Shown: piece by piece, positions 38,970 to 59,399 of the stretch
Position numbering within the stretch: position 1 is the first letter of the stretch
Layout of the letters: each line of letters opens with the position of its first letter
Sequence record: PZ445534.1
Strand: one strand, 5' to 3'
DNA length: 64,000 nt
From: a phage
Made by a program: the position numbers and the translations under genes
The notes under the pieces: generated by a model
Databases searched by the model: none
What the model was told of the DNA's origin: nothing
The model's input: only the letters and a program-made list of their open reading frames with translations

Positions 38970-40016
38970 ATGGAGAAGTACACATTAACAAAACTTCCCG
39001 ATTCAGTTACACATGTTTTTATTGACTCTGACAGTATTGCCTATAAAGGTGCTTGTGTAGTTGAGAAAGCAAAGTATAAATATGTCAATAAACTCACAGC
39101 AGAAGAATCTGAACCATTTGATAATGCGAAAGATGCTGCAAGATGGTTAGCAGACCAGAGAATCCTTGTGGAAGAACTTGGCCTGACATTTGATGAAGAT
39201 GAATGGGAAAGACAGACTTGGAAAGAAGCTAAGAGTGAAAAAGAAGCTATCATGGCTACTCAACAGGTTCTTCAGGAATGGCTTAAGGTTGTTGGTAAAG
39301 AGAGAATTTGGGTAGGTTATCTAACAGAGAAAGGTGTGCATAAGCATAAAGACATTAAAGGTCTTGAGCACCAATATCAAGGTAACCGTAAAGATGCTGT
39401 CACACCAACACACTTAGTTGCTTGTCGTGAGTATCTTCTGTCAAGACCAGAGTTCAAACTAATTCTTGATGGATTTGAAGCCGATTCTATCGTTATTGCT
39501 AAAGCTGAAAAGATGGGTAAAAAGGCTGCCTTGATGAGTATTGATAAAGACCTTCGTCAAGCTGAAGGGACTTACTGCATTGATATGACCTATGAAAAGT
39601 CACCTTTGATTTTCATTGCTGACAACAACGTAGGTGAAATTTGGGATTGCCCAATAAAATCGACACCAAAAGCTAAGAAGACAGTTGGGGTAGGTTTTAA
39701 ATTTCTTTGTTACCAAGCTGTGGCTGGTGATAATGCTGATAATTATTTTGGTTTAAAGGGCGTTGGTAAGGCTACTGTAATGAAAGCACTTGAAGGTAAA
39801 ACCACCTACAAAGAGTGTCTTGATGCAATTTATGAGCTTTATGCTAAGAAAGAGTCATACACTTATGTCTCGTGGGATGGTCAAACAATTACCAGAACAC
39901 CTTTAGAGTTAATGCAGCAACACTTTTTCTTAGCTTATCAGGAAAGAAACAAGAAAGACGATTTTACTTTTGATAAGTATGGGTGGACACCAAATGTTAA
40001 CTCAACAAACTCTTAA
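38970..40016 (+). CDS. 5'-3' exonuclease / flap endonuclease (T7 gp6-like)
   Basis: 348 aa; H3TH-like motif AGDNADNYFGLKGVGKATVMKAL; N-terminal FIDSDSIAYK. Confidence 0.65.
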   Translation: MEKYTLTKLPDSVTHVFIDSDSIAYKGACVVEKAKYKYVNKLTAEESEPFDNAKDAARWLADQRILVEELGLTFDEDEWERQTWKEAKSEKEAIMATQQVLQEWLKVVGKERIWVGYLTEKGVHKHKDIKGLEHQYQGNRKDAVTPTHLVACREYLLSRPEFKLILDGFEADSIVIAKAEKMGKKAALMSIDKDLRQAEGTYCIDMTYEKSPLIFIADNNVGEIWDCPIKSTPKAKKTVGVGFKFLCYQAVAGDNADNYFGLKGVGKATVMKALEGKTTYKECLDAIYELYAKKESYTYVSWDGQTITRTPLELMQQHFFLAYQERNKKDDFTFDKYGWTPNVNSTNS

Positions 40017-40485
40017 AGAGTACCTACATTATGACCCCGAAACAGGGGTCTTTACTTGGATTAAGAAATCTGCTAGACACACAAAAATTGGCTCTGTTGC
40101 AGGTACAAACTTAAGAGGGTATACCAGAATTTATTTGTTTGGTAAGGGCTATTATGCACATACCCTAGCCGTTCTGTATATGGATGGATACCTACCTGAG
40201 TGTGTTGACCATAAAAATCATGTAACACTAGACAATCGCTGGGTAAATCTTAGGGCATGTACGTTATCAGAGAACCAATGTAATAGGTTGCTCAATAAGA
40301 ACAATAAATCAGGTGTTAAAGGTGTGTACTACAAAAAACAGTATGGTAAGTGGTCTACACAGATAACTTTTAAGAAGAGGGTTTACTTCTTCGGCAACTA
40401 TGACACTATTGATGAAGCAGCAGAGGTTGTAAATAGGGAACGTCAACGTTTACACAAAGAGTTTGCTAATAAAGGTGATGAATGA
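39970..40485 (+). CDS. free-standing HNH homing endonuclease with AP2 domain (paralog of 29598..30131)
   Basis: 171 aa; HNH motif VDHKNHVTLDNRWVNLR; AP2-like GVKGVYYKKQYGKWSTQI; shares N-terminal LHYDPETGVFTW with the other HNH. Confidence 0.75.
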   Translation: MISMGGHQMLTQQTLKEYLHYDPETGVFTWIKKSARHTKIGSVAGTNLRGYTRIYLFGKGYYAHTLAVLYMDGYLPECVDHKNHVTLDNRWVNLRACTLSENQCNRLLNKNNKSGVKGVYYKKQYGKWSTQITFKKRVYFFGNYDTIDEAAEVVNRERQRLHKEFANKGDE

Positions 40486-40982
40486 GAAAAATAAAAGGTT
40501 TTGGCAATTGCCCTGAATATGGACATTGGGTTTCACTATGTGGTGAAGTTGACCCAGCAAAGCACTTTGGTTTTGTCTACCTAGTGTACTGCAAAAAGAC
40601 TGGACAGTACTATTTGGGTAAAAAACAGCTTAACAGTGTGACCAAAAGAAAAGTTGCTGGGAAGACTCGGAAGAAGATAGTCACTAAGGAAAGTGATTGG
40701 ATGACTTATGAGACTTCTTCTGAGTATATTAAAAAAGATATTGAAAGCTTTGGAAAAGAATTTTTTGACTTTTACATTATTCAGACCTACTACACAAAAG
40801 GTGGCCTAGTCTATGGTGAAGCAAACCTTCAACATAAATTCGATGTAATGACAAAAAGGATTGACTCGAAGCTCAGACTCTTCTACAATGCCAATATTGC
40901 AGCAATTAAGTTTATTACTAAAGAAACTTATGAAGATGCTGAAAAAAGAATCCATAAGGTAATGAAAGCAAACTGTGCTTGA
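40482..40982 (+). CDS. putative GIY-YIG family endonuclease
   Basis: 166 aa; GIY-YIG-like N-terminus GFVYLVYCKKTGQYYLGKK. Confidence 0.5.
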   Translation: MRKIKGFGNCPEYGHWVSLCGEVDPAKHFGFVYLVYCKKTGQYYLGKKQLNSVTKRKVAGKTRKKIVTKESDWMTYETSSEYIKKDIESFGKEFFDFYIIQTYYTKGGLVYGEANLQHKFDVMTKRIDSKLRLFYNANIAAIKFITKETYEDAEKRIHKVMKANCA

Positions 40983-40988
40983 TAACTA

Positions 40989-41234
40989 TTGAGAGAGAAT
41001 AAAATGTTTAACAAAAGTAAAGCTGTGAGTCATGTAGCAAAGGTTGACAGCAAGATTGAAGAACTTGAGCGCATTCTTGCAAATGCCAGAGAGTCAATAA
41101 TTAAAGAAGTTGAAGCTGTTGAATCTCAAATGCAACACCTAATGCTTAAACGTCAAGAGTTACGTGAGCATCTGGAATATATTGAAACACGAGAGCTAAA
41201 GGTTAACAGATTTTTAAGGAGTCCAAATGTTTAA
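40989..41234 (+). CDS. hypothetical coiled-coil protein
   Basis: 81 aa ORF. Confidence 0.3.
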   Translation: MRENKMFNKSKAVSHVAKVDSKIEELERILANARESIIKEVEAVESQMQHLMLKRQELREHLEYIETRELKVNRFLRSPNV

Positions 41235-41982
41235 CTCAAGAGAAGCAGTAAAAAACTGGAATCTTCGTTGTGGAAACACTCAAAAGCAACCTTACAGTGA
41301 TGAGTATTGGGAATCTTTAAAATCCCAGTCTCTGTGTATGCTTGAAGAAGCAAAAGAGCTTGTAAAAGCAATTGAAGAGAAAGACCCCATTGAGACACTG
41401 GATGCTCAGGCAGATTTGCAATATGTTCTTGATGGTCTGATTTATCTGTCACAACATGACCATAACGGTGCTATGAAAGCTGTTTGCCATAATAATGACC
41501 TGAAATACACAGATAACTATGAAGAAGCTTTAAAACGTCTTGCAGATATTGAAAAGCGTACTGGTCAAGAGTGTATTATCAGAATGTCAGTAGTTGATGG
41601 TAAAGAGTGGTATGCAATTGTTCGTGCAGCAGATGGGAAGATTATGAAGCAATCAAATCTCCCTAAAGTACAGCTTGGTGAATACATTGTAGAACTTGAA
41701 AGCCAAGAACTTTTTGTGGTAGTATCTGAGACATGCGTTATCTGCAAAGGTATTGTATGTAGCTTAAAGGATTTGGGTGTAGATGGTTTTGTAGAAGTTA
41801 ATCCAATTACCTCTAAAGCAGATAAAGATTTCTGTAAAGAGAATGGACTATGGATTGCAGATATTGTCTACTATGATGGTGAGCAGTTCCATGTAACCTC
41901 ATACCCGAAACTGAATTATGATGCTAATAACCTGAAGTGCTGGTTAAAAGGGGTTGGTTATAATGGATTCACAGAACATTAA
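41227..41982 (+). CDS. hypothetical protein, possible MazG-like nucleotide pyrophosphohydrolase N-domain
   Basis: 251 aa; N-terminal EEAKELVKAIEEKD...DLQYVLDGLIYL loosely MazG-like. Confidence 0.3.
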   Translation: MFNSREAVKNWNLRCGNTQKQPYSDEYWESLKSQSLCMLEEAKELVKAIEEKDPIETLDAQADLQYVLDGLIYLSQHDHNGAMKAVCHNNDLKYTDNYEEALKRLADIEKRTGQECIIRMSVVDGKEWYAIVRAADGKIMKQSNLPKVQLGEYIVELESQELFVVVSETCVICKGIVCSLKDLGVDGFVEVNPITSKADKDFCKENGLWIADIVYYDGEQFHVTSYPKLNYDANNLKCWLKGVGYNGFTEH

Positions 41983-42286
41983 TAAAGAGGGTGTGGCTCA
42001 GAAGAGCCACTTCTCAAACTACAATATTTCTATGACGGTGTTTATGAATGACCCGTTACTAGAAAAATATGGTGAGACTCCAGATACACTTCTGGACAAT
42101 GAACAAGTTTTAAAAGCAGTCCTGTACAAATATGGGATTGATATTGAGAAAGAGTATTCTTTTGAAATCTGCCAACACAGAAATACTTTTGGGAAAGTTG
42201 TAATGGCTCCACTCTTCATGGGTGTAGAAAGGACTGACTATGGTTGGTTATATCTAAAAAGAAACTTGGAGAAATACCGTGTCTAA
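41954..42286 (+). CDS. hypothetical protein
   Basis: 110 aa ORF. Confidence 0.3.
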   Translation: MVIMDSQNINKEGVAQKSHFSNYNISMTVFMNDPLLEKYGETPDTLLDNEQVLKAVLYKYGIDIEKEYSFEICQHRNTFGKVVMAPLFMGVERTDYGWLYLKRNLEKYRV

Positions 42287-42614
42287 AACAAAAAAGCTAT
42301 CTTATGATGACATTATCTCAGGTGCTAAGTTAGGTGTTGACAGTATCGGACAAGATATCAAGCACGGAGACACAGTCATGTACTGTGATGACCGAAGAGG
42401 AAGAAGTGCAATCTTGTTTGGAAGGATTGTTTGCAAGATGCGAGGTAATTACGTTGTTGCAGACATGGATGTGAACGTTACACAAAAACTTGAAACAATT
42501 ATGGATGATAATACACCATCATGGTTCCTAAATTGTATGCACACCTCGTCAGTCACAAAAGTAAGTGATAAGTTTTACGATATGTGGCAGAATGAGCAAA
42601 TTTTCAAGATTTAA
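42279..42614 (+). CDS. hypothetical protein
   Basis: 111 aa ORF. Confidence 0.3.
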   Translation: MSKTKKLSYDDIISGAKLGVDSIGQDIKHGDTVMYCDDRRGRSAILFGRIVCKMRGNYVVADMDVNVTQKLETIMDDNTPSWFLNCMHTSSVTKVSDKFYDMWQNEQIFKI

Positions 42615-42619
42615 ACTAT

Positions 42620-42644
42620 GGAGCCTCTTCGGAGGCTCTTTTCA
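42620..42644 (+). terminator. rho-independent terminator
   Basis: GGAGCCTC-ttcg-GAGGCTC + TTTTC. Confidence 0.55.
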
Positions 42645-42660
42645 TCTGTAGGATTCAAAA

Positions 42661-44895
42661 ATGATTAAGACAATTAAAAAATCAAACGGTACAGTAGTAA
42701 GCTTTGACCCAGAAAGACTGAATAAGTGGGCATCATGGGCAGATAAACGTGGGATTATCTGGTCAGAAGTCACTATGGAAGCCATGAAACGTGTCTATGA
42801 GGGTTGCACTACAAAAGAGATGCACCAAGCCATGATTGATGTTTGTGTTGATAAACAAACTCAAGAGTACTCAGATATGGCTGGACGACTGCTTTTGGGT
42901 ATTATCTACAAAGAAGCCTTTGGAGGCTTTACTAAGGTTCCTACGCTGGTTACCTTCGTTAAAAATATGGAGAGAGCAGGACTTTGGGAGAAGATGGACT
43001 ATTCACAGGAAGAGCTTGAATATCTGCAAGGTTACATCGTACACTCAAAAGATATCTCTTACGGCTATGCAGTCTTGAAACAGTTCAGAGACAAGTATGG
43101 TATCCGTGATATTAAAACTGGAAGACTTTTTGAGTCACCACAATTTATGTTTATGGGTATGGCTATGAAAGCCTTTGAGAAGCAACCAAAGCACCGTAGA
43201 CTGCAAGATGTTATCAAGCTGTACACTTACCTATCCGACCTGAAGATTAACGCTCCTACGCCTTATTTAAATGGTTTAAGAGCAACTAAATCAGGTTATG
43301 CGTCATGCTGTTTGATTAAGGCAAATGATACTGCTGAGTCTCTCGGTATTGCTGCAAAGGTTGCTTATGATATGACCACAAAGCAAGCTGGTATTGGTAT
43401 GCTGATGGAGACACGTACTATTGGTGATGGTATCCGTCAAAACACTATTGAGCACATGGGTAAACTACCTTATTACAAGCTTGTACGTTCATCTGTAGAG
43501 GCAAACAAACAGAAGAGCCGTGGTGGTTCAGCTAATAACTTCTACACCGCTCTAGACCCGCAGATTGAAGACTTACTGCGTTTGAAGCACCCTACAACGG
43601 TTCCTTCTAAACGTATTAATGAGATGGACTACTCATTCGGCACAAACGATTATTTCTGGCAGTGTGTTCAGTATGATACAGATTGGTTGCTATTCTCGTA
43701 CAAAGATGCACCAAAACTCTATGACATGTTCTACACAGCATCTGCTGATGAGTTTGCTATGGCAGTTGGTCACGCAGTACACTCAGGAGTTAAGCACAGA
43801 CGAGTTAAGGCTCGTGAAATTGCTAAGCTGTTTATTCAACAGCGTTATGCTACAGGACGTGTGTATCCATTCTTCACTAACAATGCAAACACACATACAC
43901 CATTTAAAGAGCCTTTGAAGATGTCAAATCTTTGTATGGAAATTGTGTTGCCAGTGTATGGTTTTGAGAAAGAGACAGACCTTTACAGAGACGATGCTGT
44001 GAAAGAGGATGGTGAGGTGGCTCTTTGCTTCCTAGCTAGTTTGGTTGCAGGGAGAATTTCAGAAGATGAATACGCTGACGTTGCTTATTATGCTCTTGCA
44101 ATGGTTGACTCCGTTATTGACCTTATGGATTATCCGTATCCGTCGATGCGTAACCATGTTCAGAAGCGTCGTTCTGTTGGGATTGGCCTTACAAATGTGG
44201 CTCATTACCTTGCGAAGAACTACGTGAACTACTCTTCACGAGCAGGTAAAACGAAACTTCATGAACTTGCAGAGATGCACTCTTACTATCTGCATGAAGC
44301 TTCTCTGAGACTTGCTAAAGAGCGTGGTGTTCCAGAGTACATGAAGTTCACTAAGTATCCTGAAGGCTGGGTTCCTCCAAAGACAGCTAACAAGAAGATT
44401 GATGAAAAGCATGATGCAAAACTACGATATGATTGGGATGACTTAGCACAACGTATCAAAGAAAATGGTGGAATCCGAAACTCTGTATTAGAAGCTTACA
44501 TGCCTAATGAGAGTTCTTCACTAGCAACTAATACGACAAACGGCTTGTACCCAATTCGTGACTTTATTTTAACTAAAAAGTCTGCAACTGGTAACGTACT
44601 GTTTATTGTTCCAGATTATGAAGAGTTGAAGTATGTCTATGAAATTGCTTGGAATATTGACACCTTTGATATGATTGATTGTTATGCAATTGTTCAAAAG
44701 TTCACTGGTCAAGCTATCTCTTCAGACTTCTATGTTGACTATGCAAAGTCTAAGAAGGTATCATTGGCTCAAGCTCTGAAGTACATGATTTATGCCAACT
44801 CGGTAGGTATGAAAACAATGTACTACCTTAACAGTCGCATTGGTGTAGGTAAATCTGCACTGCAAGATGCTTATTGCGAGGGTTGTGGTGTTTAG
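42661..44895 (+). CDS. nrdA: ribonucleoside-diphosphate reductase large subunit (class I)
   Basis: 744 aa; N-terminal ATP-cone; active-site motif SNLCMEIVLP. Confidence 0.9.
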   Translation: MIKTIKKSNGTVVSFDPERLNKWASWADKRGIIWSEVTMEAMKRVYEGCTTKEMHQAMIDVCVDKQTQEYSDMAGRLLLGIIYKEAFGGFTKVPTLVTFVKNMERAGLWEKMDYSQEELEYLQGYIVHSKDISYGYAVLKQFRDKYGIRDIKTGRLFESPQFMFMGMAMKAFEKQPKHRRLQDVIKLYTYLSDLKINAPTPYLNGLRATKSGYASCCLIKANDTAESLGIAAKVAYDMTTKQAGIGMLMETRTIGDGIRQNTIEHMGKLPYYKLVRSSVEANKQKSRGGSANNFYTALDPQIEDLLRLKHPTTVPSKRINEMDYSFGTNDYFWQCVQYDTDWLLFSYKDAPKLYDMFYTASADEFAMAVGHAVHSGVKHRRVKAREIAKLFIQQRYATGRVYPFFTNNANTHTPFKEPLKMSNLCMEIVLPVYGFEKETDLYRDDAVKEDGEVALCFLASLVAGRISEDEYADVAYYALAMVDSVIDLMDYPYPSMRNHVQKRRSVGIGLTNVAHYLAKNYVNYSSRAGKTKLHELAEMHSYYLHEASLRLAKERGVPEYMKFTKYPEGWVPPKTANKKIDEKHDAKLRYDWDDLAQRIKENGGIRNSVLEAYMPNESSSLATNTTNGLYPIRDFILTKKSATGNVLFIVPDYEELKYVYEIAWNIDTFDMIDCYAIVQKFTGQAISSDFYVDYAKSKKVSLAQALKYMIYANSVGMKTMYYLNSRIGVGKSALQDAYCEGCGV

Positions 44896-45208
44896 TTTTA
44901 ACAACTATGAGGGTCGTAAAAGACCCTCTAAAAATAACTTTGGAGAGACCATGAAAGATTTAATAGAAAAACATGAGCGACCTATATACTTGCTCCACAA
45001 GCCTCGGAAAACGATGTACTATGTGAGTAGCACAGACATGATGATAAAACAAAATGATGACTCATGGGTTGCTGGTATCTCTTACATCTCTACAGCAGAT
45101 GGTAAAATCTATGCAAGACCTTATGAGATGTTTAACAAAGAAAATTGGGAAGTTTTAGACAGAAAACAAGCCTTAGAAATGATAAAGAAAGGAGAAATCA
45201 CACTATGA
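44867..45208 (+). CDS. hypothetical protein (true start probably internal, near 44949)
   Basis: 113 aa ORF bridging nrdA and nrdB. Confidence 0.25.
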   Translation: MLIARVVVFSFNNYEGRKRPSKNNFGETMKDLIEKHERPIYLLHKPRKTMYYVSSTDMMIKQNDDSWVAGISYISTADGKIYARPYEMFNKENWEVLDRKQALEMIKKGEITL

Positions 45209-46278
45209 TTAACCAGCACCCAATCTTTTTAGGTGGTGAGAGAAAAACTTTTGACTCACTTAATAAACACTACCCAAAAATCTTTGAGCTTTATAAGCAA
45301 CAAAAAGCACAAGACTGGTCAGAAGATGAGTTCCCTTTTGAACAATCACGTCTTGATTTTGAGAGTGTCCCAGCATCAATGTCAGGTGTAATGCTTGAGA
45401 TTCTTAAGTGGCAGTGGGAAGCAGATACCCAAGTTGCTAAGAGCTTGGCATTTGCCTTTGCACCATTTATCTCTGATGACATCTATGCAACTGCAATTAT
45501 GAAGCAGTCTGAGATTGAAAACCTACATGCTCTTACTTACTCAGAGATTGTAAGGCAATGTATTAAAAACCCTGAAACAATCTTAGATGAGATTAACCAG
45601 AATGTTGCTGTGCAAGACCGATTAAAAACTGTGAATCGTGTTCTTGAAGAATTACTGGATGAAGGTATAAACTATCGTCTGAATTATGTTCGTGATTCAC
45701 TTCTGGACAAAGACCCTTTACACTTCCATAAAGTGATTCTGAAAGGGCTGTTTGCAGTGACTGCACTTGAAGGTATATCTTTTATGGCATCATTTGCATG
45801 TACTTTTGCACTTGATGCTCAAGATAAATTTCAGGGTATTGCTCAAGCTGTCCAGAAAATTATGCTTGATGAAATCCTTCACACTAAAATTGATATTGAA
45901 GTTTTAAAAGAAACTTTAAGAGATGATGAGTGGCAGAAAGCTTTTCAACAGATTCTTCCAGAGATTAAAGTAATCTTAGATGAAGTAGTTGAAAGTGAAG
46001 AGAAATGGTCGTATTATATCTTCTCCGAAGGACGTGCTGTAGTTGGCTTAAATACAAAGCTTCTTCATGAGTGGGTTTACTATAATGCTGCCCCACTGTA
46101 TGATATGTTTGGCATTCCCAGAGATTTTGTAGCTCCTAAAGAACCACCTTTGAAGTACATGATTAAGAAGATGGAAATTGATAAAGAGCAGAATGCTAAT
46201 CAGGAGCAACAGAACGGTGCGTACCTATTGAATACTGTTGTAGATGATTTGAATAGTGGATTTTTAGAGGTTCCTTAA
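45205..46278 (+). CDS. nrdB: ribonucleoside-diphosphate reductase small subunit (start set at ATG 45205 rather than ORF-track TTG 45145)
   Basis: Follows nrdA; ExxH-type motif (DEILH); RBS AAAGGAG upstream of ATG 45205. Confidence 0.75.
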   Translation: MINQHPIFLGGERKTFDSLNKHYPKIFELYKQQKAQDWSEDEFPFEQSRLDFESVPASMSGVMLEILKWQWEADTQVAKSLAFAFAPFISDDIYATAIMKQSEIENLHALTYSEIVRQCIKNPETILDEINQNVAVQDRLKTVNRVLEELLDEGINYRLNYVRDSLLDKDPLHFHKVILKGLFAVTALEGISFMASFACTFALDAQDKFQGIAQAVQKIMLDEILHTKIDIEVLKETLRDDEWQKAFQQILPEIKVILDEVVESEEKWSYYIFSEGRAVVGLNTKLLHEWVYYNAAPLYDMFGIPRDFVAPKEPPLKYMIKKMEIDKEQNANQEQQNGAYLLNTVVDDLNSGFLEVP

Positions 46279-46520
46279 TGACTTATGTAATTTACTCCAA
46301 AACTGGATGCCCTCAGTGTGAGACTGCAAAGAATTTTGCAAAAGCTCGTGGTATTGACCATGTTGTGAGAATGTTAGGGCAGGATTATGAACTGTCAGAC
46401 CTGATGGATATTGCACAGATGCCAGTCCGTCAGATGCCATTCATCATGAAAACCGATGGACAAAACCTAAAACCTGTTGGGACGCTACAGAATTTTATGG
46501 CAGAGGTGAATAATGCTTAA
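46278..46520 (+). CDS. glutaredoxin-like protein (NrdH/NrdC-like)
   Basis: 80 aa; CPQC redox motif near N-terminus; coupled to nrdB. Confidence 0.65.
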   Translation: MTYVIYSKTGCPQCETAKNFAKARGIDHVVRMLGQDYELSDLMDIAQMPVRQMPFIMKTDGQNLKPVGTLQNFMAEVNNA

Positions 46521-46719
46521 ACGCATTTGGGAAGGTTTGGTTGTTGATGCACCAGCTATTGTGATTGGTATGCTTATTGTTAACCTATTTACTGACTTTG
46601 AACAAGGTTCATTGTTTGGAGCCATGTTACTATGGGTTATCTTCGAAATATTAGAGATACAGCTAGGCATCACTGAAAAACTAAGAGAAATCTTTGCGAA
46701 GTTTTCTAAAAAGATTTAA
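46513..46719 (+). CDS. small membrane protein
   Basis: 68 aa, two hydrophobic segments. Confidence 0.3.
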   Translation: MLKRIWEGLVVDAPAIVIGMLIVNLFTDFEQGSLFGAMLLWVIFEILEIQLGITEKLREIFAKFSKKI

Positions 46720-46724
46720 AATGA

Positions 46725-46748
46725 AAGGGTCTCTTCGGAGACCTTTTT
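46725..46748 (+). terminator. rho-independent terminator
   Basis: GGGTCTC-ttcg-GAGACC + TTTTT. Confidence 0.5.
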
Positions 46749-46767
46749 AGCATGTAAAGGGGCAATA

Positions 46768-47964
46768 ATGAACAAAGTACAGATTATTAAAAAGAATGGC
46801 TCACTTGAAGAACCTGATATCAAAAAAGTTTTAGCAGCAGTCACAAAGTCAGCTAACAGAGTTGGTTATAAAGAGCTTCCACCAGATGTTACTCAAGCTC
46901 TTGAGTCAGCATTTATGAGGATTCTGGTAAAGTCCACTAAGCAGAATAATTTGCTAATTTCGGTAAATGATATTCACAGTATTGTTGAGGGTGCTTTGGC
47001 AGAAGTCAATCACGAGATTTATGAGTCTTACTCAACATATAGAAATTACCGTAAAGAGGTTGCTCAAAATTGGGATGAACTCTACCAGAAGACCAAAGAT
47101 ACACTCTTCTTAGGCGACCGAGAAAACGCTAATTTTGACAGCAGTTTAATTTCTACAAAAGGCTCAATTATTCGTGGTTACCTGACTAAAGAAATCTTTA
47201 AACAGTACCATTTAACACCAGAGGAACTTGAAGCCATTGAAAAAGGATTTATCTATATCCATGATTTAAGAGACCTAATTTTTGGTGGTATCAACTGTTG
47301 CCTGTTTGACATTGGTAAAGTCCTGAAAGGTGGCTTTGAAATGTCTGGCATTGAATATTGTGAACCGAAGTCTGTGCTGTCAGCCTTACAGGTTATTGGT
47401 GATGTAGTTCTTTCAGCAACTGCACAGCAATTTGGTGGCTTTACTTTAGCAGAGATTGATAAGGTACTTGTACCGTATGCTAAGAAGTCTCTACGTTACC
47501 ATGCTGAAAAAGCAACAGCTTATGGTATTCCTAAAGAACATTACCACAACTATGTCATGGAGCAGCTACAGATTGAATTAACTCAAGGTTTTCAGTCTCT
47601 TGAAATGAAGCTCAATACTGTGCCTTGTAGCCGTGGTGATTTTGCATTCACAACTTTGACATTCGGGTTACTTGACTCAGATATGTCTAATGAAGATAAC
47701 CGACTGCAATACATGATTGCGAGCACTCTCCTAGATGTTCGTATGAATGGACAAGGTAAGAGCAAGAAACCTGTTGTATTCCCTAAACTGGTTTATATTT
47801 ATGACCAGAAGAGACACAATGAGAATATCTGTCAAGGCCACCTGTACAGTAAAGCTATTGAGTGTTGCTCTAAAGCTATGTATCCAGATTTCTTAAGTGT
47901 ATCTGGACATGGTGCTGTAGCAGAGGCTTTTGAGCGTTCTGGCAAGGTAATTTCCCCGATGGGT
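46768..47964 (+). CDS. nrdD: anaerobic ribonucleoside-triphosphate reductase, exon 1
   Basis: N-terminal ATP-cone; exon ends ...ISPMG before intron that begins with in-frame TAA. Confidence 0.85.
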
Positions 47965-48280
47965 TAACAAGCTCTATAGCTCATCTAAAACGTGCCTAAA
48001 CAGGGAAACTCTACAGATGTAGACAATCCTGTGCTAAATGATGTACGATGTAAGAAACTATACAACATAGGAGTCTTACATGCCAAATAACTTCGAATAT
48101 GAGTTTGAATACATCTAAATGCCGAACGACTAACCGTGATGAATGTAGCGGTGTAGGGTCAAGCGACTCGAAATGGTACGCTACTTAGAAATAAGTAGAA
48201 GATATAGTCTGGACTTACTGGCGACAGTAAGCAGCTTGAATAAAGCGGGGTAAGCTTAGCGAACTTACTTGAACAACAAG
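47965..48280 (+). ncRNA. group I self-splicing intron (ORF-less, td/nrdD-like) in nrdD
   Basis: 316 nt; strongly resembles T4 td intron core as recalled (CCTAAACAGGGAAACTCTACAGATGTAGACAATCCTGTGCTAAATG; GTAGGGTCAAGCGACTCGAAATGG; AGATATAGTCTGGAC); exon 1 ends in T, intron ends in G, spliced frame preserved. Confidence 0.8.
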
Positions 48281-49228
48281 TGTAGAGCATTTTTATCACC
48301 ATACCATAACGAACATGGTGAAGAGTTTTATGTAGGTCGTGCTAACATTGGTGCTGTATCTTTGAACTTACCAATGATTTATCAGTACACCAAAGAGAAT
48401 GGCTTAGATTTCTGGAAAGAGCTTGATAAGTACCTAGAAATGATTCGCAGCTTCCACAAGAAACGTTACGAAATGATTGCTAATATGCCAGCAAGTTCTA
48501 ACCCTCTTGCATTCACACAGGGTGGTCTGTACAAAGGGAATAAGAAACCTACTGACAAGGTTGGCTGGGATATCGTGAAGTCCTTCACAGCTTCTTTTGG
48601 GGTTACTGCGCTTGATGAGCTATCTGTTCTTGCTGAAGGTAAACGACTCCATGAAGTTGGAAGCTGTAGTTTTGCATATGATGTTCTGGCATACATTAAC
48701 ATGAAAACTGAAGAGTTTAAGAACGAAGATGGCTTCTTGTATGCGGTATATGGCACTCCAGCAGAATCACTTTGTGGAACTCAGTTAAAACAGTTCAGAG
48801 ATATGTTTGGCGTTATTAAAGGTGTCTCTGACAAGGAATACTTTACAAACAGTTTCCATATGAATGTTGCAGCAGACATCTCACCATTTGAGAAGCAGGA
48901 CTTAGAAGAGCCATTCTTCCATATCTGTAGAGGTGGTAGAATCCAGTATGTAAGGGTAGCTAACCCAGAAAACTTAACAGCACTTAAAAGTTGTATTACA
49001 AGAGGGATGTTGAAAGGTTTCTATCAGGGGCTTAACTTTGACTTAGCAATCTGTGAACATTGTGGTAACAGACCAAAGGCTGATGTTGAAGAATGTGAGG
49101 TTTGCCATTCACATGATATCTCTGTGATTAACAGGGTGTGCGGGTACTTGTCATTCACAAAAATTAAAGGTCAGTCTCGAATGAATGACGCTAAGATGGC
49201 AGAAATTAAGGATAGGGTTTCTATGTAA
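48281..49228 (+). CDS. nrdD: anaerobic ribonucleoside-triphosphate reductase, exon 2 (glycyl radical domain)
   Basis: Begins CRAFLS...; C-terminal zinc site CEHCG...CEVCH and glycyl-radical motif RVCGYL. Confidence 0.85.
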   Translation, partial: CRAFLSPYHNEHGEEFYVGRANIGAVSLNLPMIYQYTKENGLDFWKELDKYLEMIRSFHKKRYEMIANMPASSNPLAFTQGGLYKGNKKPTDKVGWDIVKSFTASFGVTALDELSVLAEGKRLHEVGSCSFAYDVLAYINMKTEEFKNEDGFLYAVYGTPAESLCGTQLKQFRDMFGVIKGVSDKEYFTNSFHMNVAADISPFEKQDLEEPFFHICRGGRIQYVRVANPENLTALKSCITRGMLKGFYQGLNFDLAICEHCGNRPKADVEECEVCHSHDISVINRVCGYLSFTKIKGQSRMNDAKMAEIKDRVSM

Positions 49229-49239
49229 AACTTGACAAG

Positions 49240-49626
49240 GTGGTGTGGGTCTTGATAGGCTTACATCACCTTTTTATTTGGAGTTACATTATGGACTTGT
49301 GGCTTTATGTAGCAGTTTGTGGGATTGTATGTCTGATAATCTTATTTATTCTTGGAATAATGCGATTTAGAGACATCATACAGTCAGATTTTTTGCCTGA
49401 GTTTACCATGATAGTTGGAGTTATTACACTTTGTGTCTTGGCTGTGTTCTATTCATACAAAACTGTGATATGGATGGAGGCAAACAATTGTGTAAAAACT
49501 CATCAGCATCGTGAGGTTACTCATTCTGTGAGTGTACTTAGTGGTAGCACCACTATACTTGTCCCACAAACTTCTGTAGAGTATCTTTACACATGTGATA
49601 ATGGTAAAACTATATGGTGGAATTAA
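49240..49626 (+). CDS. membrane protein
   Basis: 128 aa, multiple hydrophobic helices. Confidence 0.3.
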   Translation: MVWVLIGLHHLFIWSYIMDLWLYVAVCGIVCLIILFILGIMRFRDIIQSDFLPEFTMIVGVITLCVLAVFYSYKTVIWMEANNCVKTHQHREVTHSVSVLSGSTTILVPQTSVEYLYTCDNGKTIWWN

Positions 49627-49829
49627 CAATGACAACACTCTTAAAAGTATTGATACCCATACTACATATAGCAGTCTTCTTTTTTGGTGTTAGTGTTATG
49701 GTATGGGGATTTTCAGACCCACAATGGAGTTTCTCATATCATGGTCAGATGGATTTATGGTCATGCTTCAAACCATTTTTAGGGTTAGCTATAGCATTCA
49801 GTGCATTACCAACTAAGGTGAAATTATGA
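49614..49829 (+). CDS. small membrane protein
   Basis: 71 aa, two hydrophobic helices. Confidence 0.3.
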   Translation: MVELTMTTLLKVLIPILHIAVFFFGVSVMVWGFSDPQWSFSYHGQMDLWSCFKPFLGLAIAFSALPTKVKL

Positions 49830-50221
49830 TTAAGTTGAACCAAAAACAGTTAGAGTGGCTTAAAGATTACGCCTCAGAGTGTGGCTCTTGCGAAAAGAAT
49901 CACGTAAAATACTCAACATTCCATACAACCTTCACATTGTATATTGGCGACAACGTTCTAAGTGATTCCGTAGAAGATGGTGTACCGTTGCCTAATGAAT
50001 TGCTTGACAAATTAGCTGTAGTCACTGGAACTTGGTCTGAAGAAGACGGTCATGAATTATCTGACAATGTTGTCTTCTACAGTCTTGAAAATATTATGAA
50101 TCCAGAGTACATTATGCTAATGACTTGTGCACAAGATTGTGTGCCATTGCAAAACTTCATTAAAGAGCACTGTGAAGAATTTATTACTAAACAGGTTCCC
50201 TGTCAGGTAGTGTTTGAATGA
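49826..50221 (+). CDS. hypothetical protein
   Basis: 131 aa ORF. Confidence 0.35.
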   Translation: MIKLNQKQLEWLKDYASECGSCEKNHVKYSTFHTTFTLYIGDNVLSDSVEDGVPLPNELLDKLAVVTGTWSEEDGHELSDNVVFYSLENIMNPEYIMLMTCAQDCVPLQNFIKEHCEEFITKQVPCQVVFE

Positions 50222-50280
50222 GTAAAACAATTCGAAGAAAAGGTTTAAAGAGCGATTAAATAAATTGGTGAGGTAACTAG

Positions 50281-50766
50281 ATGAATTACATGGAGATTAG
50301 ACCATTCGATACATCTAATGGTGAAGGGGTTCGTGTAAGCCTCTTCGTAGCTGGTTGTAAGCATCACTGTGAAGGCTGCTTTAACAGGGAGTCTTGGAAG
50401 TTTAATGCTGGTAAAGTATTTACTTATGCAAACTTCTACGGCATCATTAAGTTAATGGATGATGATGCTGTCAGTGGGCTGTCAATACTTGGTGGAGAAC
50501 CTCTGGATGATAGAAATATTCAAGAGGTTACCAACATATGCAAACGTATTAAAACCGTTTACCCAGAAAAATCTATCTGGCTCTGGACAGGTTTTCAGTT
50601 ACACGAAAAAATTCACCTAGATGTGATGAAATATGTTGACGTGGTGATTGATGGTAAGTATGATTCATCTAAACCAACAGTTAAACCATATCGTGGTTCT
50701 GATAACCAAAACCTCTGGAGAAAAGAGTATGGATGGCAAGGCGATTGTCAATGGCGAGCAGAGTGA
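50281..50766 (+). CDS. nrdG: anaerobic ribonucleotide reductase activating protein (radical SAM)
   Basis: 161 aa; CxxxCxxC cluster motif GCKHHCEGC. Confidence 0.8.
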   Translation: MNYMEIRPFDTSNGEGVRVSLFVAGCKHHCEGCFNRESWKFNAGKVFTYANFYGIIKLMDDDAVSGLSILGGEPLDDRNIQEVTNICKRIKTVYPEKSIWLWTGFQLHEKIHLDVMKYVDVVIDGKYDSSKPTVKPYRGSDNQNLWRKEYGWQGDCQWRAE

Positions 50767-51004
50767 TTATTCTGGCAAATGGACTTACGACATCAACAAG
50801 TTAGATGCTTGGATGATTTATACGAGAGAAAAATTTGGTGCAAGTTCATTATGTGCTCTTGCAACGATGGTGAAGAACGTTACCTTTGACATTCATGACT
50901 CAGATAAGTTTGGAGACTTCTACAGGATTCAAAACATCAGAGAAGGCATGACTCCAATTGGTATCACTGAAGAAGAACTTCATAAGTTCTGTATTAAACT
51001 TTAA
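50648..51004 (+). CDS. hypothetical protein (start probably internal)
   Basis: 118 aa ORF overlapping nrdG 3' end in another frame. Confidence 0.25.
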   Translation: MMVSMIHLNQQLNHIVVLITKTSGEKSMDGKAIVNGEQSDYSGKWTYDINKLDAWMIYTREKFGASSLCALATMVKNVTFDIHDSDKFGDFYRIQNIREGMTPIGITEEELHKFCIKL

Positions 51005-51285
51005 TGAGAGAGACTAAAATGGGAATTTTAGGTAATATGAAAGCTGGCTTCTTGAAGGCACTGGCAAAAGCAGCAGCAATCATTTCTATGACTGGAAAGC
51101 AGGTTGGTGTAGATGCTTCAGCAGTTGCACAAGTTCTTACAAGCCAAATTGAACAGCAACCTTACATCTACGTAGGCCGTGGCAAAGGTGGTAAAAAACA
51201 AGCACATCGACCAACTGGTGCAGCAGCAATTAAACGTGCAGCTAAAAAAGCTCGTAACCGTAAACGTAATAAGAAGGCTAAATAA
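51004..51285 (+). CDS. small basic protein
   Basis: 93 aa; Lys/Arg-rich C-terminus. Confidence 0.35.
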   Translation: MRETKMGILGNMKAGFLKALAKAAAIISMTGKQVGVDASAVAQVLTSQIEQQPYIYVGRGKGGKKQAHRPTGAAAIKRAAKKARNRKRNKKAK

Positions 51286-51287
51286 TC

Positions 51288-51608
51288 ATGAGCAAAGTTT
51301 ATAACACTCGCAAATTACAGATTTTCGTACTGTGCCAGTTTATGGCTAAAGAATACAACTTCTACTATTGCGGCACAGGTTTTATTAGCGACGATGATGG
51401 TTCATACCTACCATTCAAAGAAGCTGTAAAACTCTTTAATGAAGAGAAAAGCTCTAAGAAAGATATTGAAAAGGTTAAGCTAACTTACAGTAAGAAAGAT
51501 AAGAAGATTATCTGCCTAGATAACTTTGTAAAAGTTACTGGAGAAGCAAAAGAGTTTATGGATGAGAGTGAGATTTCATTCACAAGCATCTTGAAAGTAG
51601 CTCAGTAA
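51288..51608 (+). CDS. hypothetical protein
   Basis: 106 aa ORF. Confidence 0.35.
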   Translation: MSKVYNTRKLQIFVLCQFMAKEYNFYYCGTGFISDDDGSYLPFKEAVKLFNEEKSSKKDIEKVKLTYSKKDKKIICLDNFVKVTGEAKEFMDESEISFTSILKVAQ

Positions 51609-51619
51609 ACAGATACTAT

Positions 51620-51650
51620 AAGGGAACTGTAAAGGTTCCCTTTTTATTTT
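51620..51650 (+). terminator. rho-independent terminator
   Basis: GGGAAC-tgtaaag-GTTCCC + TTTTT. Confidence 0.55.
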
Positions 51651-51772
51651 GGAGATGATATGTATCTGTCAAACCTAAAACGTTCTGCTGCAATGTCAGT
51701 GTTAAGACTTAGCTTTGAGGAACGTCAAGAGTTCATTGACTCCACCAATACGACCCCTCAAACTCCAATCAC

Positions 51773-52045
51773 ATGATTCTCTGGAATCGTGAAAGTACTC
51801 GTGAAAGAGTACTATTCCGTTATTACCCACACTACACTATAGATAACCTGTATGAATGTTTTGTTGTGAAGAACACCATTGCAGTGCTCAATAAGCTTTG
51901 TAGATACACAGGTAGTCAATCCTTCACATTAGGCCACCACAAACCTGTTACAAAAGGTGGTGAACATCACTGTGCAAACTGGTTTATTCAGACTAAAGCT
52001 GATAACCAGAAGCAAGGAGATAACCTTTTAAGTGCCCTAAGATGA
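51773..52045 (+). CDS. small HNH endonuclease
   Basis: 90 aa; HNH-like LGHHKPVTKGGEHHCANWFIQTKADNQKQGDN. Confidence 0.45.
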   Translation: MILWNRESTRERVLFRYYPHYTIDNLYECFVVKNTIAVLNKLCRYTGSQSFTLGHHKPVTKGGEHHCANWFIQTKADNQKQGDNLLSALR

Positions 52046-52165
52046 CCTATGAAGAGCAAGAGAGATATATCAAAAATAATATGCCAGATGTGCTTGACAA
52101 CAACTATACAGATTTGGCAATATCTCTCCTGTTGAAGTTCGAGACAGTTTATAGGGCAACTTATA

Positions 52166-52444
52166 ATGGCTAAAGAAAAGTGGGAGATTTTACCATTAGT
52201 CAGTGAAGGAGGTAATGGTTGTGAAATGTACATGATACGTGGTCATGTTCCAGAGCCAATTGCACTTGAGATGGTAAACAACTTTACAGATGGTTCTTAC
52301 AAAGACTTAGGCGAACCAACTGTCAAGCAACAATGGGTTAAACCTGTACCAGACAGCACAGGTAACTGTAGTGTACTTTATCACGTTGTAGACCCTGCAA
52401 AATGCAAATCTGCAATGGCAGTAACAAACGTAACTTTTGATTGA
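52166..52444 (+). CDS. hypothetical protein
   Basis: 92 aa ORF. Confidence 0.3.
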   Translation: MAKEKWEILPLVSEGGNGCEMYMIRGHVPEPIALEMVNNFTDGSYKDLGEPTVKQQWVKPVPDSTGNCSVLYHVVDPAKCKSAMAVTNVTFD

Positions 52445-53337
52445 GAGAGAAAACTATGAAAACTGTTATTGAAGCCGTCATCACCGCTCAAGAGAAATTC
52501 TTCCACACAGAAAAATTTAATATCATTCAATTCCCATCTGGAGAAATTGGTGGAAACTTCTCTGAAGATTTTGTTAAGTTTACTGAGCGTAATGCCGGTA
52601 AGATTGATAATGTTATAATTACTGTACAGGGATATGACAAAGATACACTGTTTGCATTAGCTTTGGCTAAGGATGCCGTTGACAGTCTTGTTCCCCAGAA
52701 ATCAGCGATGAAAACCGTTGTTTTCGGGTTCTTACCAAATGCTCGATATGACCGCCACATGTTCAAAGGTGATGCAGCAGCACTGAAAGTCTTTGCCAAC
52801 CTAGTTAATGCAATGGGTTTTGATGCAGTATGTGCTCTTGACCCTCATAGTAATGTTGCAGAAAACTTATTTAAGTGCTTTCAAAGCATGAAGCAAAAAG
52901 ATGTGGCAGTACACTTTGCAAGTGACCCACGCATTGATTTCTTGGTAGCCCCAGATGCAGGTGCAGCTAAGAAGACTGAAGATACCGCTAAAGAGGTGGA
53001 TAAACCGTATATCACAATGTCTAAGGTGCGCAATCTTAAGACTGGAGAAATCACTGGTATGCGAATCCTAGACGATGTTGATTTGACCGATAAAACTGTC
53101 ATGATTCTTGATGATATCTGTGATGGTGGTCGAACCTTCGTAGAGGCAGCTAAACACCTACGTGAAGCAGGTGCAAAACGTGTGGAACTCTATGTAACTC
53201 ATGGTATTTTCTCTAAAGGTGTTGAAAACTTACTTGACAACGGTATTGACCATATCTACACTACAAACACCTTAGGTGAAGCTAAAGACCGTGGCTTAAC
53301 ACATTACGCCCAAGTTACTGTAGCAACCATTGATTGA
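52441..53337 (+). CDS. prs: ribose-phosphate pyrophosphokinase (PRPP synthetase)
   Basis: 298 aa; PRPP-binding motif MILDDICDGGRTFVEAAKHLREAGAKRV and overall resemblance to E. coli Prs as recalled. Confidence 0.8.
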   Translation: MREKTMKTVIEAVITAQEKFFHTEKFNIIQFPSGEIGGNFSEDFVKFTERNAGKIDNVIITVQGYDKDTLFALALAKDAVDSLVPQKSAMKTVVFGFLPNARYDRHMFKGDAAALKVFANLVNAMGFDAVCALDPHSNVAENLFKCFQSMKQKDVAVHFASDPRIDFLVAPDAGAAKKTEDTAKEVDKPYITMSKVRNLKTGEITGMRILDDVDLTDKTVMILDDICDGGRTFVEAAKHLREAGAKRVELYVTHGIFSKGVENLLDNGIDHIYTTNTLGEAKDRGLTHYAQVTVATID

Positions 53338-53386
53338 AACTTTATATGGGCTTGAAAGCCCCACTTTGAGAGAGAGAGATTAAAAG

Positions 53387-55168
53387 ATGACTAAATCACT
53401 TTACGCAGTACCAGCAGGTCTTAATGCAGATGCTTACAAGGCATCACATATATATCAGTATCCAGATGCTACGCAATATCTTATGTTGAACCTGACACCA
53501 CGTAGTGATAAATGGTTTAACAGCCCTTTGGCAATTGACGGTGTAGTGGCTTTTGGTATTCAACGTTTCGTTAAAGATTACTTGATAGACCACTGGAACG
53601 CCACTTTCTTTGAACGTGATAAAAAAGAAGCCATTGATGAAATCTTAGAAGTCATGAATGGTGTTCTGGGTAAAGATGCTATCGGTCGAGAGCACTGGGA
53701 AGCACTTCACGACTTAGGTTATCTACCAGTTGAAGTATACGCTGTAGAAGAAGGTACAGTTGTCCCTATGCGCGTCCCAATGATTGTCTTCCAGAACACT
53801 GTTTCAGGCTTCCATTGGGTAGCGGGGTATCTGGAAGATGCTTTCTCTGCTGAGATTTGGAAGGCTTGTACCATTGCAACTATTGCATTGCACTACAAAC
53901 GTATCTGTAAGAAGTGGGCTGACCTTACTTGTGACAACGACTTGCATTTGCCTTATCAGTGCCATGACTTTGCTATGCGTGGTATGTCCGGCTTTACTGA
54001 TGACGCATTTAACGCTGTAGGCCACTTAACCAGCTTTAAAGGAACTGATAGCTTCCCTGCTGTGTATACGGCTAAACGAATCTATGGACAGTCCTACCCA
54101 ATCTCTGATATTGGTAGCTCTGTACCAGCCACTGAGCACTCTGTAATGTGTGCAAACATTGCTTGGGAAGGTGGTAATGAGTTGATTGAAGAAGAAAGAC
54201 GCTTTAAAGGTGAGTTACAAACCTTCCGTCGTTTCTTAACAGAAACTTACCCAACTGGTATTGCAAGTGTTGTTTCAGACACTTATAACTTCTGGAGAAC
54301 TGTGTCAGAAATTTTACCAGCACTTCGTAAAGAAATTATGGAACGTGATGGCAAACTGGTAATTCGTCCTGACTCTGGAGACCCTGTACATATTGTCACA
54401 GGTTATAAAGCAATCCACTTAGAATGTGCTAAAAAGGCTTATTACGAGCACCTAAGCAAGCTGGAAGCCAGTGACACAATGTTGAATGCTGTTCTGAACA
54501 TGAAGCTTGAAAATATCAACTATGGTATTGCTGGATGGCTACTGTCAGAAGGCTACGAAATGGTTGTTGACAGAGAAGACTTTGAAGTTGCTGATACAGT
54601 GATGTTGAAAAATGCTTATATGGTTGGTTCTGCAAACGTTGTAACACGTCCTGTAGCTGAGATTGATGGAGCTATTAAGACACTGTACAACATCTTCGGA
54701 GGGACTATTAACTCTAAAGGGTTTAAGGTACTGGATGAGCACATCGGCCTTATCTATGGTGACTCTATCACGCTGGAACGTGCAAACGAAATCCTGAAGC
54801 GTCTGTATGAAATGGGTTTTGCAAGCTCTAACGTAGTGTTTGGTGTAGGCTCTTACACTTACCAGTACATGACTCGTGACACCTTTGCATTTGCTGTCAA
54901 AGCAACTCTTGCAAGCATTGGTGGTAAAGAGATTATGCTTGCAAAAGACCCTAAAACAGATAGTGGTGTTAAGAAATCTGCCTTTGGTGGTGTAGCACCT
55001 ATGTGGGATGGTGATAAGCTGAAAGCTGTAGATGGCTATGGATTCCAGAGTTTTGCAGATGTACTTGACCACCAAGCTTGTGCTTTACGTTTAGTCTTTA
55101 GCGACTCTGAGCAGTTCGGTTATACAACTCTTGGAGATATTCGAAATAATATTGACAAGCAGCTTTAA
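53387..55168 (+). CDS. nadV: nicotinamide phosphoribosyltransferase (NadV/NAMPT-like)
   Basis: 593 aa; N-terminal DAYKASHIYQYP matches NAMPT signature DSYKVTHYKQYP as recalled; adjacent to prs. Confidence 0.75.
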   Translation: MTKSLYAVPAGLNADAYKASHIYQYPDATQYLMLNLTPRSDKWFNSPLAIDGVVAFGIQRFVKDYLIDHWNATFFERDKKEAIDEILEVMNGVLGKDAIGREHWEALHDLGYLPVEVYAVEEGTVVPMRVPMIVFQNTVSGFHWVAGYLEDAFSAEIWKACTIATIALHYKRICKKWADLTCDNDLHLPYQCHDFAMRGMSGFTDDAFNAVGHLTSFKGTDSFPAVYTAKRIYGQSYPISDIGSSVPATEHSVMCANIAWEGGNELIEEERRFKGELQTFRRFLTETYPTGIASVVSDTYNFWRTVSEILPALRKEIMERDGKLVIRPDSGDPVHIVTGYKAIHLECAKKAYYEHLSKLEASDTMLNAVLNMKLENINYGIAGWLLSEGYEMVVDREDFEVADTVMLKNAYMVGSANVVTRPVAEIDGAIKTLYNIFGGTINSKGFKVLDEHIGLIYGDSITLERANEILKRLYEMGFASSNVVFGVGSYTYQYMTRDTFAFAVKATLASIGGKEIMLAKDPKTDSGVKKSAFGGVAPMWDGDKLKAVDGYGFQSFADVLDHQACALRLVFSDSEQFGYTTLGDIRNNIDKQL

Positions 55169-55181
55169 AAGTATATGATAA

Positions 55182-55206
55182 GAGGCTCCTACGGGAGCCT
55201 TTTTAA
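55182..55206 (+). terminator. rho-independent terminator
   Basis: GAGGCTCC-tacg-GGAGCCT + TTTT. Confidence 0.55.
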
Positions 55207-55221
55207 TTTCTGGAGAAGACT

Positions 55222-55557
55222 ATGAAAATCAAAGAAATGAACATCAACATTGTCTTAGAAGAACGTTGGGAGAACATCAAGAAGCCTGAAGATGGTAAAA
55301 AGTTCCTTAACAAAATTTTAGTAGCAGCTAAAGAAGAACTGACTGGCAAGATTGCAGCAGCAATCACAATAAAAATCTGTGTAAAAGGTCTTCCACAACA
55401 TCACCAATTTGCACTTGACGAGTTTAAAGAAAGCTTCTACAATCCAAACAAACAGATGCTTGAAAGTAACTTTGCAGTGTCTACAAGTATCGTCCATGAC
55501 AGAAGCTTTATCCTTTACAAGAATATGAGAGGTGAGTCATGCAAGCATATTGGATAG
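55222..55557 (+). CDS. hypothetical protein
   Basis: 111 aa ORF. Confidence 0.35.
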   Translation: MKIKEMNINIVLEERWENIKKPEDGKKFLNKILVAAKEELTGKIAAAITIKICVKGLPQHHQFALDEFKESFYNPNKQMLESNFAVSTSIVHDRSFILYKNMRGESCKHIG

Positions 55558-55715
55558 AAATTTTACTGTCACTTGGTAGTGTAGCAGTATTTGTTTACCT
55601 TCTTTGCAAGTACTATGCAGAGCACAAGAAGTGTGATTACTGCAACGGGGAAGGGTACACAAGAGCAGGCTGTTGCCCTATGTGTGGTGGTTCTGGTAAA
55701 ATGTTTAATAAGTAA
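55539..55715 (+). CDS. small membrane-anchored Cys-rich (CxxCxGxG-type) protein, not in ORF track
   Basis: 58 aa from ATG 55539; N-terminal TM helix then CDYCNGEG...CCPMCGGSG zinc-finger-like repeats. Confidence 0.3.
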   Translation: MQAYWIEILLSLGSVAVFVYLLCKYYAEHKKCDYCNGEGYTRAGCCPMCGGSGKMFNK

Positions 55716-55743
55716 TTTAACAGTAAACTAAGAGGAAAGTATT

Positions 55744-58110: not shown

Positions 58111-58121
58111 AGTGTTTGACA

Positions 58122-58139
58122 AGGGGCTTCAAAGCCCCT
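58122..58139 (+). other. stem-loop without T-run between rIIA and rIIB
   Basis: AGGGGCTT-caa-AAGCCCCT inverted repeat. Confidence 0.35.
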
Positions 58140-58189
58140 TAGAATAGCCTTACAAAATGATTTATTAACTAACAAGAGAGAGTAATAAG

Positions 58190-59299: not shown

Positions 59300-59314
59300 T
59301 AAGTAATTTCTTAA

Positions 59315-59340
59315 AAGGCTGCTTCGGCGGCCTTTTTTAT
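59315..59340 (+). terminator. rho-independent terminator
   Basis: AGGCTGC-ttcg-GCGGCCT + TTTTTT. Confidence 0.55.
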
Positions 59341-59399
59341 TTGTATTTTGTGCAGAGTGCTGTATAATTGTTGTCACGATAAACTAAACAGGAGAACCA

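Follow-up and report, generated by a model that had tools for sequence, protein, structure and literature searches.

It is textbook knowledge that group I introns are found in conserved parts of phage genes for nucleotide metabolism, and the T4 td and nrdD introns are experimentally self-splicing. We take the paired extensions P7.1/P7.2 and P9.1/P9.2 to be the mark of subgroup IA2, the type of the T4 td, nrdB and nrdD introns. In td, the ORF for the GIY-YIG enzyme I-TevI lies in the P6a loop; in nrdD (formerly sunY), the GIY-YIG enzyme I-TevII is encoded in the P9.1 region. The T4 nrdB intron, also of the phage IA2 type, contains the inactive I-TevIII, an HNH gene that is internally deleted while the ribozyme persists, and phage introns in general favour functionally critical sequence (PMC2988022).

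In the paper on the Felix O1 genome, that phage is reported to have no introns (PMC3185647), and the statement is correct for Felix O1. An nrdD gene ‘split’ by a homing endonuclease gene has been reported for Felixounavirus, without reference to a ribozyme (PMC4837284), and ‘two introns’ are listed without comment among the non-coding RNAs of the Felixounavirus phage SPJ41 (PMC9951933). Our literature search found no splicing experiment on the Felixounavirus nrdD intron.

The window analysed here is a 64,000-nt stretch of phage DNA (PZ445534.1). To judge from a comparison with phage records, in which positions 40000-60000 are 94-96% identical to FSL SP-010/012, momo and EC6 and match no record exactly, it comes from a Felixounavirus, a Felix O1-like myovirus. 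Its nrdD gene contains, between the codons for Gly399 and Cys400, a 316-nt insert that is, by its sequence and predicted fold, a group I intron of the phage IA2 type. The best explanation of the locus, to which we assign a probability of roughly 0.88, is that this Felixounavirus nrdD is broken by a 316-nt IA2-type group I intron that represents an endonuclease-deleted copy of a mobile element. Introns of this class are well known, and this one is common among sequenced relatives. The features of the locus are collected in Table 1.

Table 1. Features of the intron-containing nrdD locus, with positions in the window and the basis of each assignment.
Feature	Position	Strand	Basis or remark
nrdD exon 1	46768-47964	+	399 codons, phase 0; ORF list
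P1 5' strand, GAUGGGU, last 7 nt of exon 1	47958-47964	+	Rfam model, RNAalifold
Group I intron, IA2-like, 316 nt	47965-48280	+	RF00028; absence from Felix O1, wV8 and E9; covariation; minimum free energy (MFE)
Internal guide sequence	47972-47985	+	CUCUAUA (47972-47978) then GCUCAUC (47979-47985); read from sequence
P3 5' strand	47991-47996	+	Compensatory changes
P4	48000-48005 with 48027-48032	+	Compensatory changes
P5	48010-48013 with 48020-48023	+	Compensatory changes
P6 5' strand	48033-48034	+	Helix map; single-sequence MFE
P6a, GAUGUA/UACAUC	48040-48045 with 48110-48115	+	5 of 6 pairs compensatory
P6a loop, 64 nt	48046-48109	+	HNH gene position in relatives
HNH homing endonuclease gene remnant	48066-48118	+	Alignment with Mushroom and REP8; exact string matching
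P6 3' strand	48121-48122	+	Helix map
P7, GACUA/UAGUC	48128-48132 with 48205-48209	+	Invariant in 5 of 5 introns
P7.1	48133-48137 with 48148-48152	+	Covariation
P7.2	48156-48160 with 48165-48169	+	Covariation
P3 3' strand	48175-48180	+	Helix map
P8, GAAA loop	48181-48187 with 48192-48198	+	6 of 7 pairs compensatory
P9, GCGA loop	48214-48220 with 48225-48231	+	Covariation set
P9.1, GCUU/AAGC	about 48234-48246	+	MFE fold
P9.2	48248-48254 with 48264-48270	+	Covariation
nrdD exon 2	48281-49228	+	315 codons and stop

The ORF at 46768-47967 encodes the N-terminal 399 residues of NrdD, a class III ribonucleotide reductase, comprising the ATP-cone and the N-terminal half of the NrdD barrel and ending ...SPMG in the protein (...ATGGGT in the DNA). 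The first codon of exon 2, TGT, encodes the cysteine that aligns to T4 NrdD Cys290, which we take to be the catalytic thiyl-radical cysteine of the active site. Joining 47964 to 48281 yields a 714-aa protein (...KVISPMG/CRAFLSPY..., the slash marking the junction) from a predicted joined-exon DNA of ...CCGATGGGT/TGTAGAGCA.... Pfam NRDD (PF13597) matches the joined protein in a single stretch across the junction (residues 119-712, E = 7e-114), covering profile positions 1-560 of 562, and the ATP-cone model matches residues 5-97. The joined protein is 97.5% identical to Felix O1 NrdD (697/715). It is 31% identical to T4 NrdD over 635 columns, and T4 does read VSPMGCRSFLS at the aligned position, as the sequence-only reading had it. 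The nrdD genes of Felix O1, wV8 and E9 have no insert and are base-for-base collinear with the joined exons (...CCGATGGGT/TGC...), so the insert is a precise, optional element. The suggestion that the two ORFs are halves of one NrdD is thereby confirmed: the Felix O1 gene is unbroken and collinear, and the NRDD match spans the junction.

The insert begins with an in-frame TAA and ends ...CAACAAG, with G48280 as its last base, and its three forward frames contain 10, 10 and 8 stop codons. The extent, the stops in all frames and both ends are thus as first read from the letters, and the three motif strings then quoted are all found in the insert. The likeness to the T4 td intron core that had been pointed out is also real (71% identical in a 164-nt stretch and 79% in a 53-nt one). 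The Rfam group I model RF00028 scores 54.6 bits (E 4e-11) in a scan of the whole window and 50.4 bits on 47950-48295 alone, both exceeding the gathering score of 50 by a small margin. The whole-window alignment set P1/P2 in upstream exon sequence (47850-47950) and was distrusted; P1 was instead taken from the rerun on 47950-48295, which uses the true splice site. Together with this match, the full set of IA2 helices with covariation and the placement of P1 and P10 at the proposed splice sites uphold the group I identity.

The predicted guide sequence reaches both exons. P1 (7 bp) pairs the end of exon 1 with GCUCAUC, placing a U47964.G47979 wobble at the 5' splice site, and P10 (7 bp) pairs CUCUAUA with UGUAGAG at the start of exon 2 (48281-48287). 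The P10 segment lies directly 5' of the P1 segment, which is the classical adjacent P10/P1 layout.

Covariation was assessed by aligning the core of the window intron with four homologous introns from which the large loops had been trimmed, namely those of T4 td, T4 nrdD and HMD-6 nrdD and the second of the nrdD introns in Vibrio phage F95. The T4 nrdB intron was excluded, its 5' half being too divergent for reliable alignment. Unguided, RNAalifold recovered P1, P3, P4, P5, P6, P6a, P7.1, P7.2, P8, P9 and P9.2 from these five sequences. Once P7 is included as a pseudoknot, the named structure has standard pairs in 95.2% of cells and changes on both sides in 31 of 68 pairs, figures to be read with the structure having been derived in part from the same five sequences. 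These values are reached by none of 500 shuffles; with the partners slid by 1-3 columns, pairing falls to 34-42% and the compensatory pairs to 1-5. In the block from P3 to P6 (47991-48034), every pair is retained. Since P7 is invariant in all five introns, its backing is conservation rather than compensatory change. Folded as a single sequence, the intron has an MFE z of -3.5, a stability that 0 of 100 shuffles match, and shows the same helices plus P9.1. In P9.2 the window has a G.U at 48249/48269 in place of G-C, which is probably harmless.

With P7.1/P7.2 and P9.1/P9.2 both present, the window intron groups with the T4-type IA2 introns. The td intron shares the IA2 core and these paired extensions, retains the same helices by compensatory changes, encodes its endonuclease in the same P6a loop, and like the window intron has an in-frame UAA as its first codon. 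However, it differs in its host gene (thymidylate synthase), its P2 hairpin (P2 is absent from the window intron), its guide sequence and its GIY-YIG enzyme. The T4 nrdD intron matches the window intron as well as td does or better, at 82% identity in the 62 nt at the 5' end and 75% in 122 nt from P6-P9. It shares with the window intron the host gene, an IA2-type core, the absence of P2, the GCUCAU guide and an early stop, which in T4 nrdD is an in-frame UAA lying two codons beyond the codon that the junction splits. The two differ in the endonuclease, which in introns of the window type is an HNH enzyme encoded in P6a instead of a GIY-YIG enzyme in the P9.1 region, and in the insertion site.

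The idea that both introns occupy the same site, put forward in the sequence-only reading, does not survive alignment. The annotated T4 nrdD gene spans 2851 nt and encodes a 605-aa product, and the intron is thus 1033 nt long. When 1033 nt are excised at every T4 position, the frame stays open only for junctions at CDS nt 499-544. Within this range, a preceding U, a terminal G and the P1 pairing (AUGAGU/GCUCAU) place the junction after nt 538, in codon 180 (AYE/YEVNT). This T4 junction aligns to window residues about 281-282, whereas the window junction falls between residues 399 and 400, before the Cys290-equivalent codon. The window junction aligns with T4 G289/C290, where T4 is uninterrupted at SPMG/C; the T4 intron lies ~118 codons upstream of that point. 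Insertion beside the Cys290-equivalent codon fits the preference of phage introns for functionally critical sequence.

Does the window intron splice? By analogy with the T4 introns, we infer that it does. The guide CUCUAUA-GCUCAUC would hold exon 2 (through P10) and exon 1 (through P1, with its U.G pair) side by side. Exogenous guanosine bound at P7 would attack after U47964, and the freed exon 1 would then attack after G48280 to give an mRNA for the 714-aa NrdD. The in-frame UAA that forms the first intron codon would halt ribosomes ahead of the ribozyme.

It could be argued instead that the intron is a dead relic, which ceased to splice after losing its endonuclease and left nrdD as a two-piece pseudogene. 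The marginal Rfam score (50.4-54.6 against a threshold of 50) would be in keeping with this, as would the tolerated loss of the anaerobic reductase illustrated by ST11 (below). We nevertheless consider it very improbable, as all core helices are intact, the deletion is confined to a peripheral loop, and both exons are open. Moreover, exon 2 changes among three deleted-intron genomes are mainly synonymous (52 synonymous and 10 non-synonymous codon changes between the window and EC6; 22 and 6 between the window and REP8), which argues for purifying selection on an exon 2 that is still translated within a selected protein. Among the deleted-form copies checked, no more than 2-4 of the 316 intron positions vary, and the flanking exons differ by 3-8%. 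The 64 nt left in the P6a loop could in principle misfold.

In Salmonella phage ST11 (MF370225.1), the corresponding locus (about 1650-1660) reads ...ATGGGTTAA/TTTTTATCACC.... A 322-nt deletion there removes the intron except for its first three bases, the in-frame TAA, together with the first 9 nt of exon 2. As the deletion takes the catalytic Cys codon, ST11 nrdD is inactivated; nrdG of this phage is also annotated in two pieces. The deletion may reflect a genuine but imprecise loss of the intron, or a fault of assembly. That nrdD is destroyed without loss of the phage indicates that loss of the anaerobic reductase is tolerated, so that in the laboratory selection for splicing may be weak.

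The window intron had been described as ORF-less. This is accurate in that it has no intact or functional endonuclease ORF, but the absence is not native, as a 12-codon remnant of a deleted gene is present. The remnant consists of an AGGAG ribosome-binding site, an ATG at 48080 and a mini-ORF (48080-48118) encoding MPNNFEYEFEYI followed by a stop. In many relatives, including Mushroom, Si3 and FSL SP-010/012, the intron is 742 nt long. In Mushroom, the additional 426 nt (142 codons) map inside the P6a loop and complete a 154-aa ORF, which matches Pfam HNH_3 and is annotated as an HNH homing endonuclease. In the window mini-ORF, 8 nt from the start of this ORF are fused in frame to 31 nt from its end, and the 31-nt 3' part comprises the last nine sense codons and the stop. 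The 426-nt segment absent from the window contains neither the start nor the stop codon. Deletion endpoints were set by exact string matching, the MAFFT alignment with Mushroom having misplaced the gap. The deletion junction in REP8 and EC6 is exactly as in the window, which suggests one deletion event.

We conclude from these comparisons that the window intron is, in all likelihood, a degenerate mobile intron in which an in-frame 426-nt deletion removed most of the HNH gene. The HNH-bearing introns of Mushroom, FSL SP-010/012, UAB_Phi87 and other Felixounavirus occupy the same site as the window intron and share its exon-2 haplotype. Leaving the 426-nt segment aside, they are 99.4% identical to it (2 differences in 316 nt); unlike the window, they retain the intact 154-aa HNH_3 endonuclease. 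The situation recalls T4 nrdB, although that intron lies in another gene and keeps a 97-aa endonuclease fragment, compared with 12 codons in the window. An intact intron-encoded homing endonuclease gene, the criterion for a mobile intron, is thus lacking from the window intron, and because its HNH gene is deleted this copy would be unable to move alone. How the deleted copy persists we can likewise only infer: it could spread only via ordinary recombination or by means of the endonuclease of a co-infecting relative.

The direction of change could also have been the reverse, with an ancestral, never-invaded 316-nt form and a later arrival of the HNH gene in the P6a loop of some Felixounavirus lineages. 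That free-standing endonuclease genes can invade introns which lack one is accepted, the route being collaborative homing (PMC2988022). Further, carriers vary more in the HNH segment (89-100% identity) than in the ribozyme (95-99.7%). However, the 426-nt difference is an internal ORF fragment without start or stop, both ends of the gene (ribosome-binding site and ATG; in-frame C-terminal codons and stop) survive in the short form, and every distant homologue at this site has a homologous HNH gene in that loop. Parsimony therefore favours deletion, and we regard an ancestral short form as less probable still than a dead relic. Finally, it is hardly credible that nrdD is a truly split gene whose two ORFs are translated apart and assembled without splicing, even though two CDS are annotated in almost every GenBank carrier and phage ribonucleotide reductases offer a precedent in the mobE-split NrdA of Aeromonas phage Aeh1, the insert of which does not splice (PMC3653736, PMC7344957), since the break falls one codon ahead of the catalytic cysteine, exon 2 begins without a start codon (the annotated downstream CDS starts at least 30 codons later, without the cysteine), and the insert is a complete group I ribozyme with a guide that pairs with both exon ends.

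Introns at the same nrdD site occur in phages with unrelated backbones. HMD-6 and navn (Vequintavirus) have an nrdD intron at ...TSMG/CRSFLS, and the second nrdD intron of F95 lies at ...SYMG/CRSLLS. These introns share with the window intron the site equivalent to SPMG/C, a homologous core, and a homologous HNH gene in P6a. The GCUCAU guide is common to all of them and to T4 nrdD. Their HNH proteins are 49% and 40% identical over the full length to that of the Felixounavirus intron. They differ from the window intron in nucleotide sequence (~70-75% identity) and in having an intact ORF. Two of these phages have further nrdD introns. The upstream intron of F95 (F95 locus 225-1383) carries a 309-aa HNH gene. 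That of navn (navn locus 1384-1691), with a different core, lies at ...SVNG/QTPF, ~10 codons away from the T4 site; it was considered as a T4-site intron and rejected, SVNG/QTPF being a third site. As the T4, SPMG/C and SVNG/QTPF positions differ, phage nrdD has at least three distinct intron sites, and introns enter it at several conserved positions.

The sequence that flanks the Felixounavirus intron may bear on how it spreads. The first ~33 nt of exon 2 (48281-48313) are the same in all four intron-carrying alleles examined, and three intronless Felixounavirus alleles show 7-9 mostly synonymous differences in this tract. The Cys codon is TGT in intron carriers versus TGC in intronless alleles, and TGT improves P10. 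The tract may be a co-conversion tract or a haplotype of endonuclease recognition or resistance. Under one pair of linked readings, the deleted intron spreads by trans-homing and the intron family has moved between nrdD sites; we offer the pair tentatively, and think it rather doubtful. In trans-homing, the HNH enzyme of a co-infecting relative may cut an intronless nrdD, and the defective intron may be copied in with a short co-conversion tract. This reading would fit the pattern seen: ~33 genomes have the identical deletion, the intron copies checked are near-identical, the flanking nrdD exons are more divergent (4-8%) and the exon-2 tract is shared. The introns with the GCUCAU guide follow AUGGGU in the window family versus AUGAGU in T4 nrdD, ~118 codons apart, and an ectopic move within nrdD could have occurred by reverse splicing, with a different endonuclease gained afterwards.

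The window holds a second ORF-free group I intron, on the minus strand at 30692-30958 (RF00028, 61.7 bits; Rfam match 30739-31021). It splits a family A DNA polymerase gene inside motif B (ORFs 30918-33131 and 30135-30689), with a P1 of AUGCGU and GCGCAU and a predicted join, read by eye, of ...KNGIYAL/LFGAGDEK.... Directly downstream of polymerase exon 2 and beside this intron, also on the minus strand, lies a free-standing endonuclease gene with HNH_3 and AP2 domains (177 aa, 29598-30131). By analogy, this layout recalls ‘collaborative homing’ (the concept is described in PMC2988022).

Among the GenBank carriers (matches H1-H30), nearly all give nrdD as two CDS and none has an annotated intron. 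The downstream CDS in the carrier records starts at an internal ATG, and so omits the catalytic cysteine. In all, ~94 deposited Felixounavirus genomes show two nrdD genes, in many cases separated by a ‘hypothetical’ or ‘HNH’ gene, where a single spliced gene should be annotated.

The intron is present at ≥ 95% identity in 94 phage records. The HNH segment occurs in 61 of these, and the remainder have the deleted form. A joined-exon query matches 230 records. In 165 of them a single place accounts for 80% or more of the query; these are intronless or short-intron forms, which puts the intronless genomes at roughly 130. In the genus, one nrdD site shows all three stages of the homing cycle: empty (~130 records), intron with endonuclease (61) and endonuclease deleted (~33). 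The nrdD gene of Felixounavirus is thus a compact natural data set on the invasion, decay and persistence of mobile introns.
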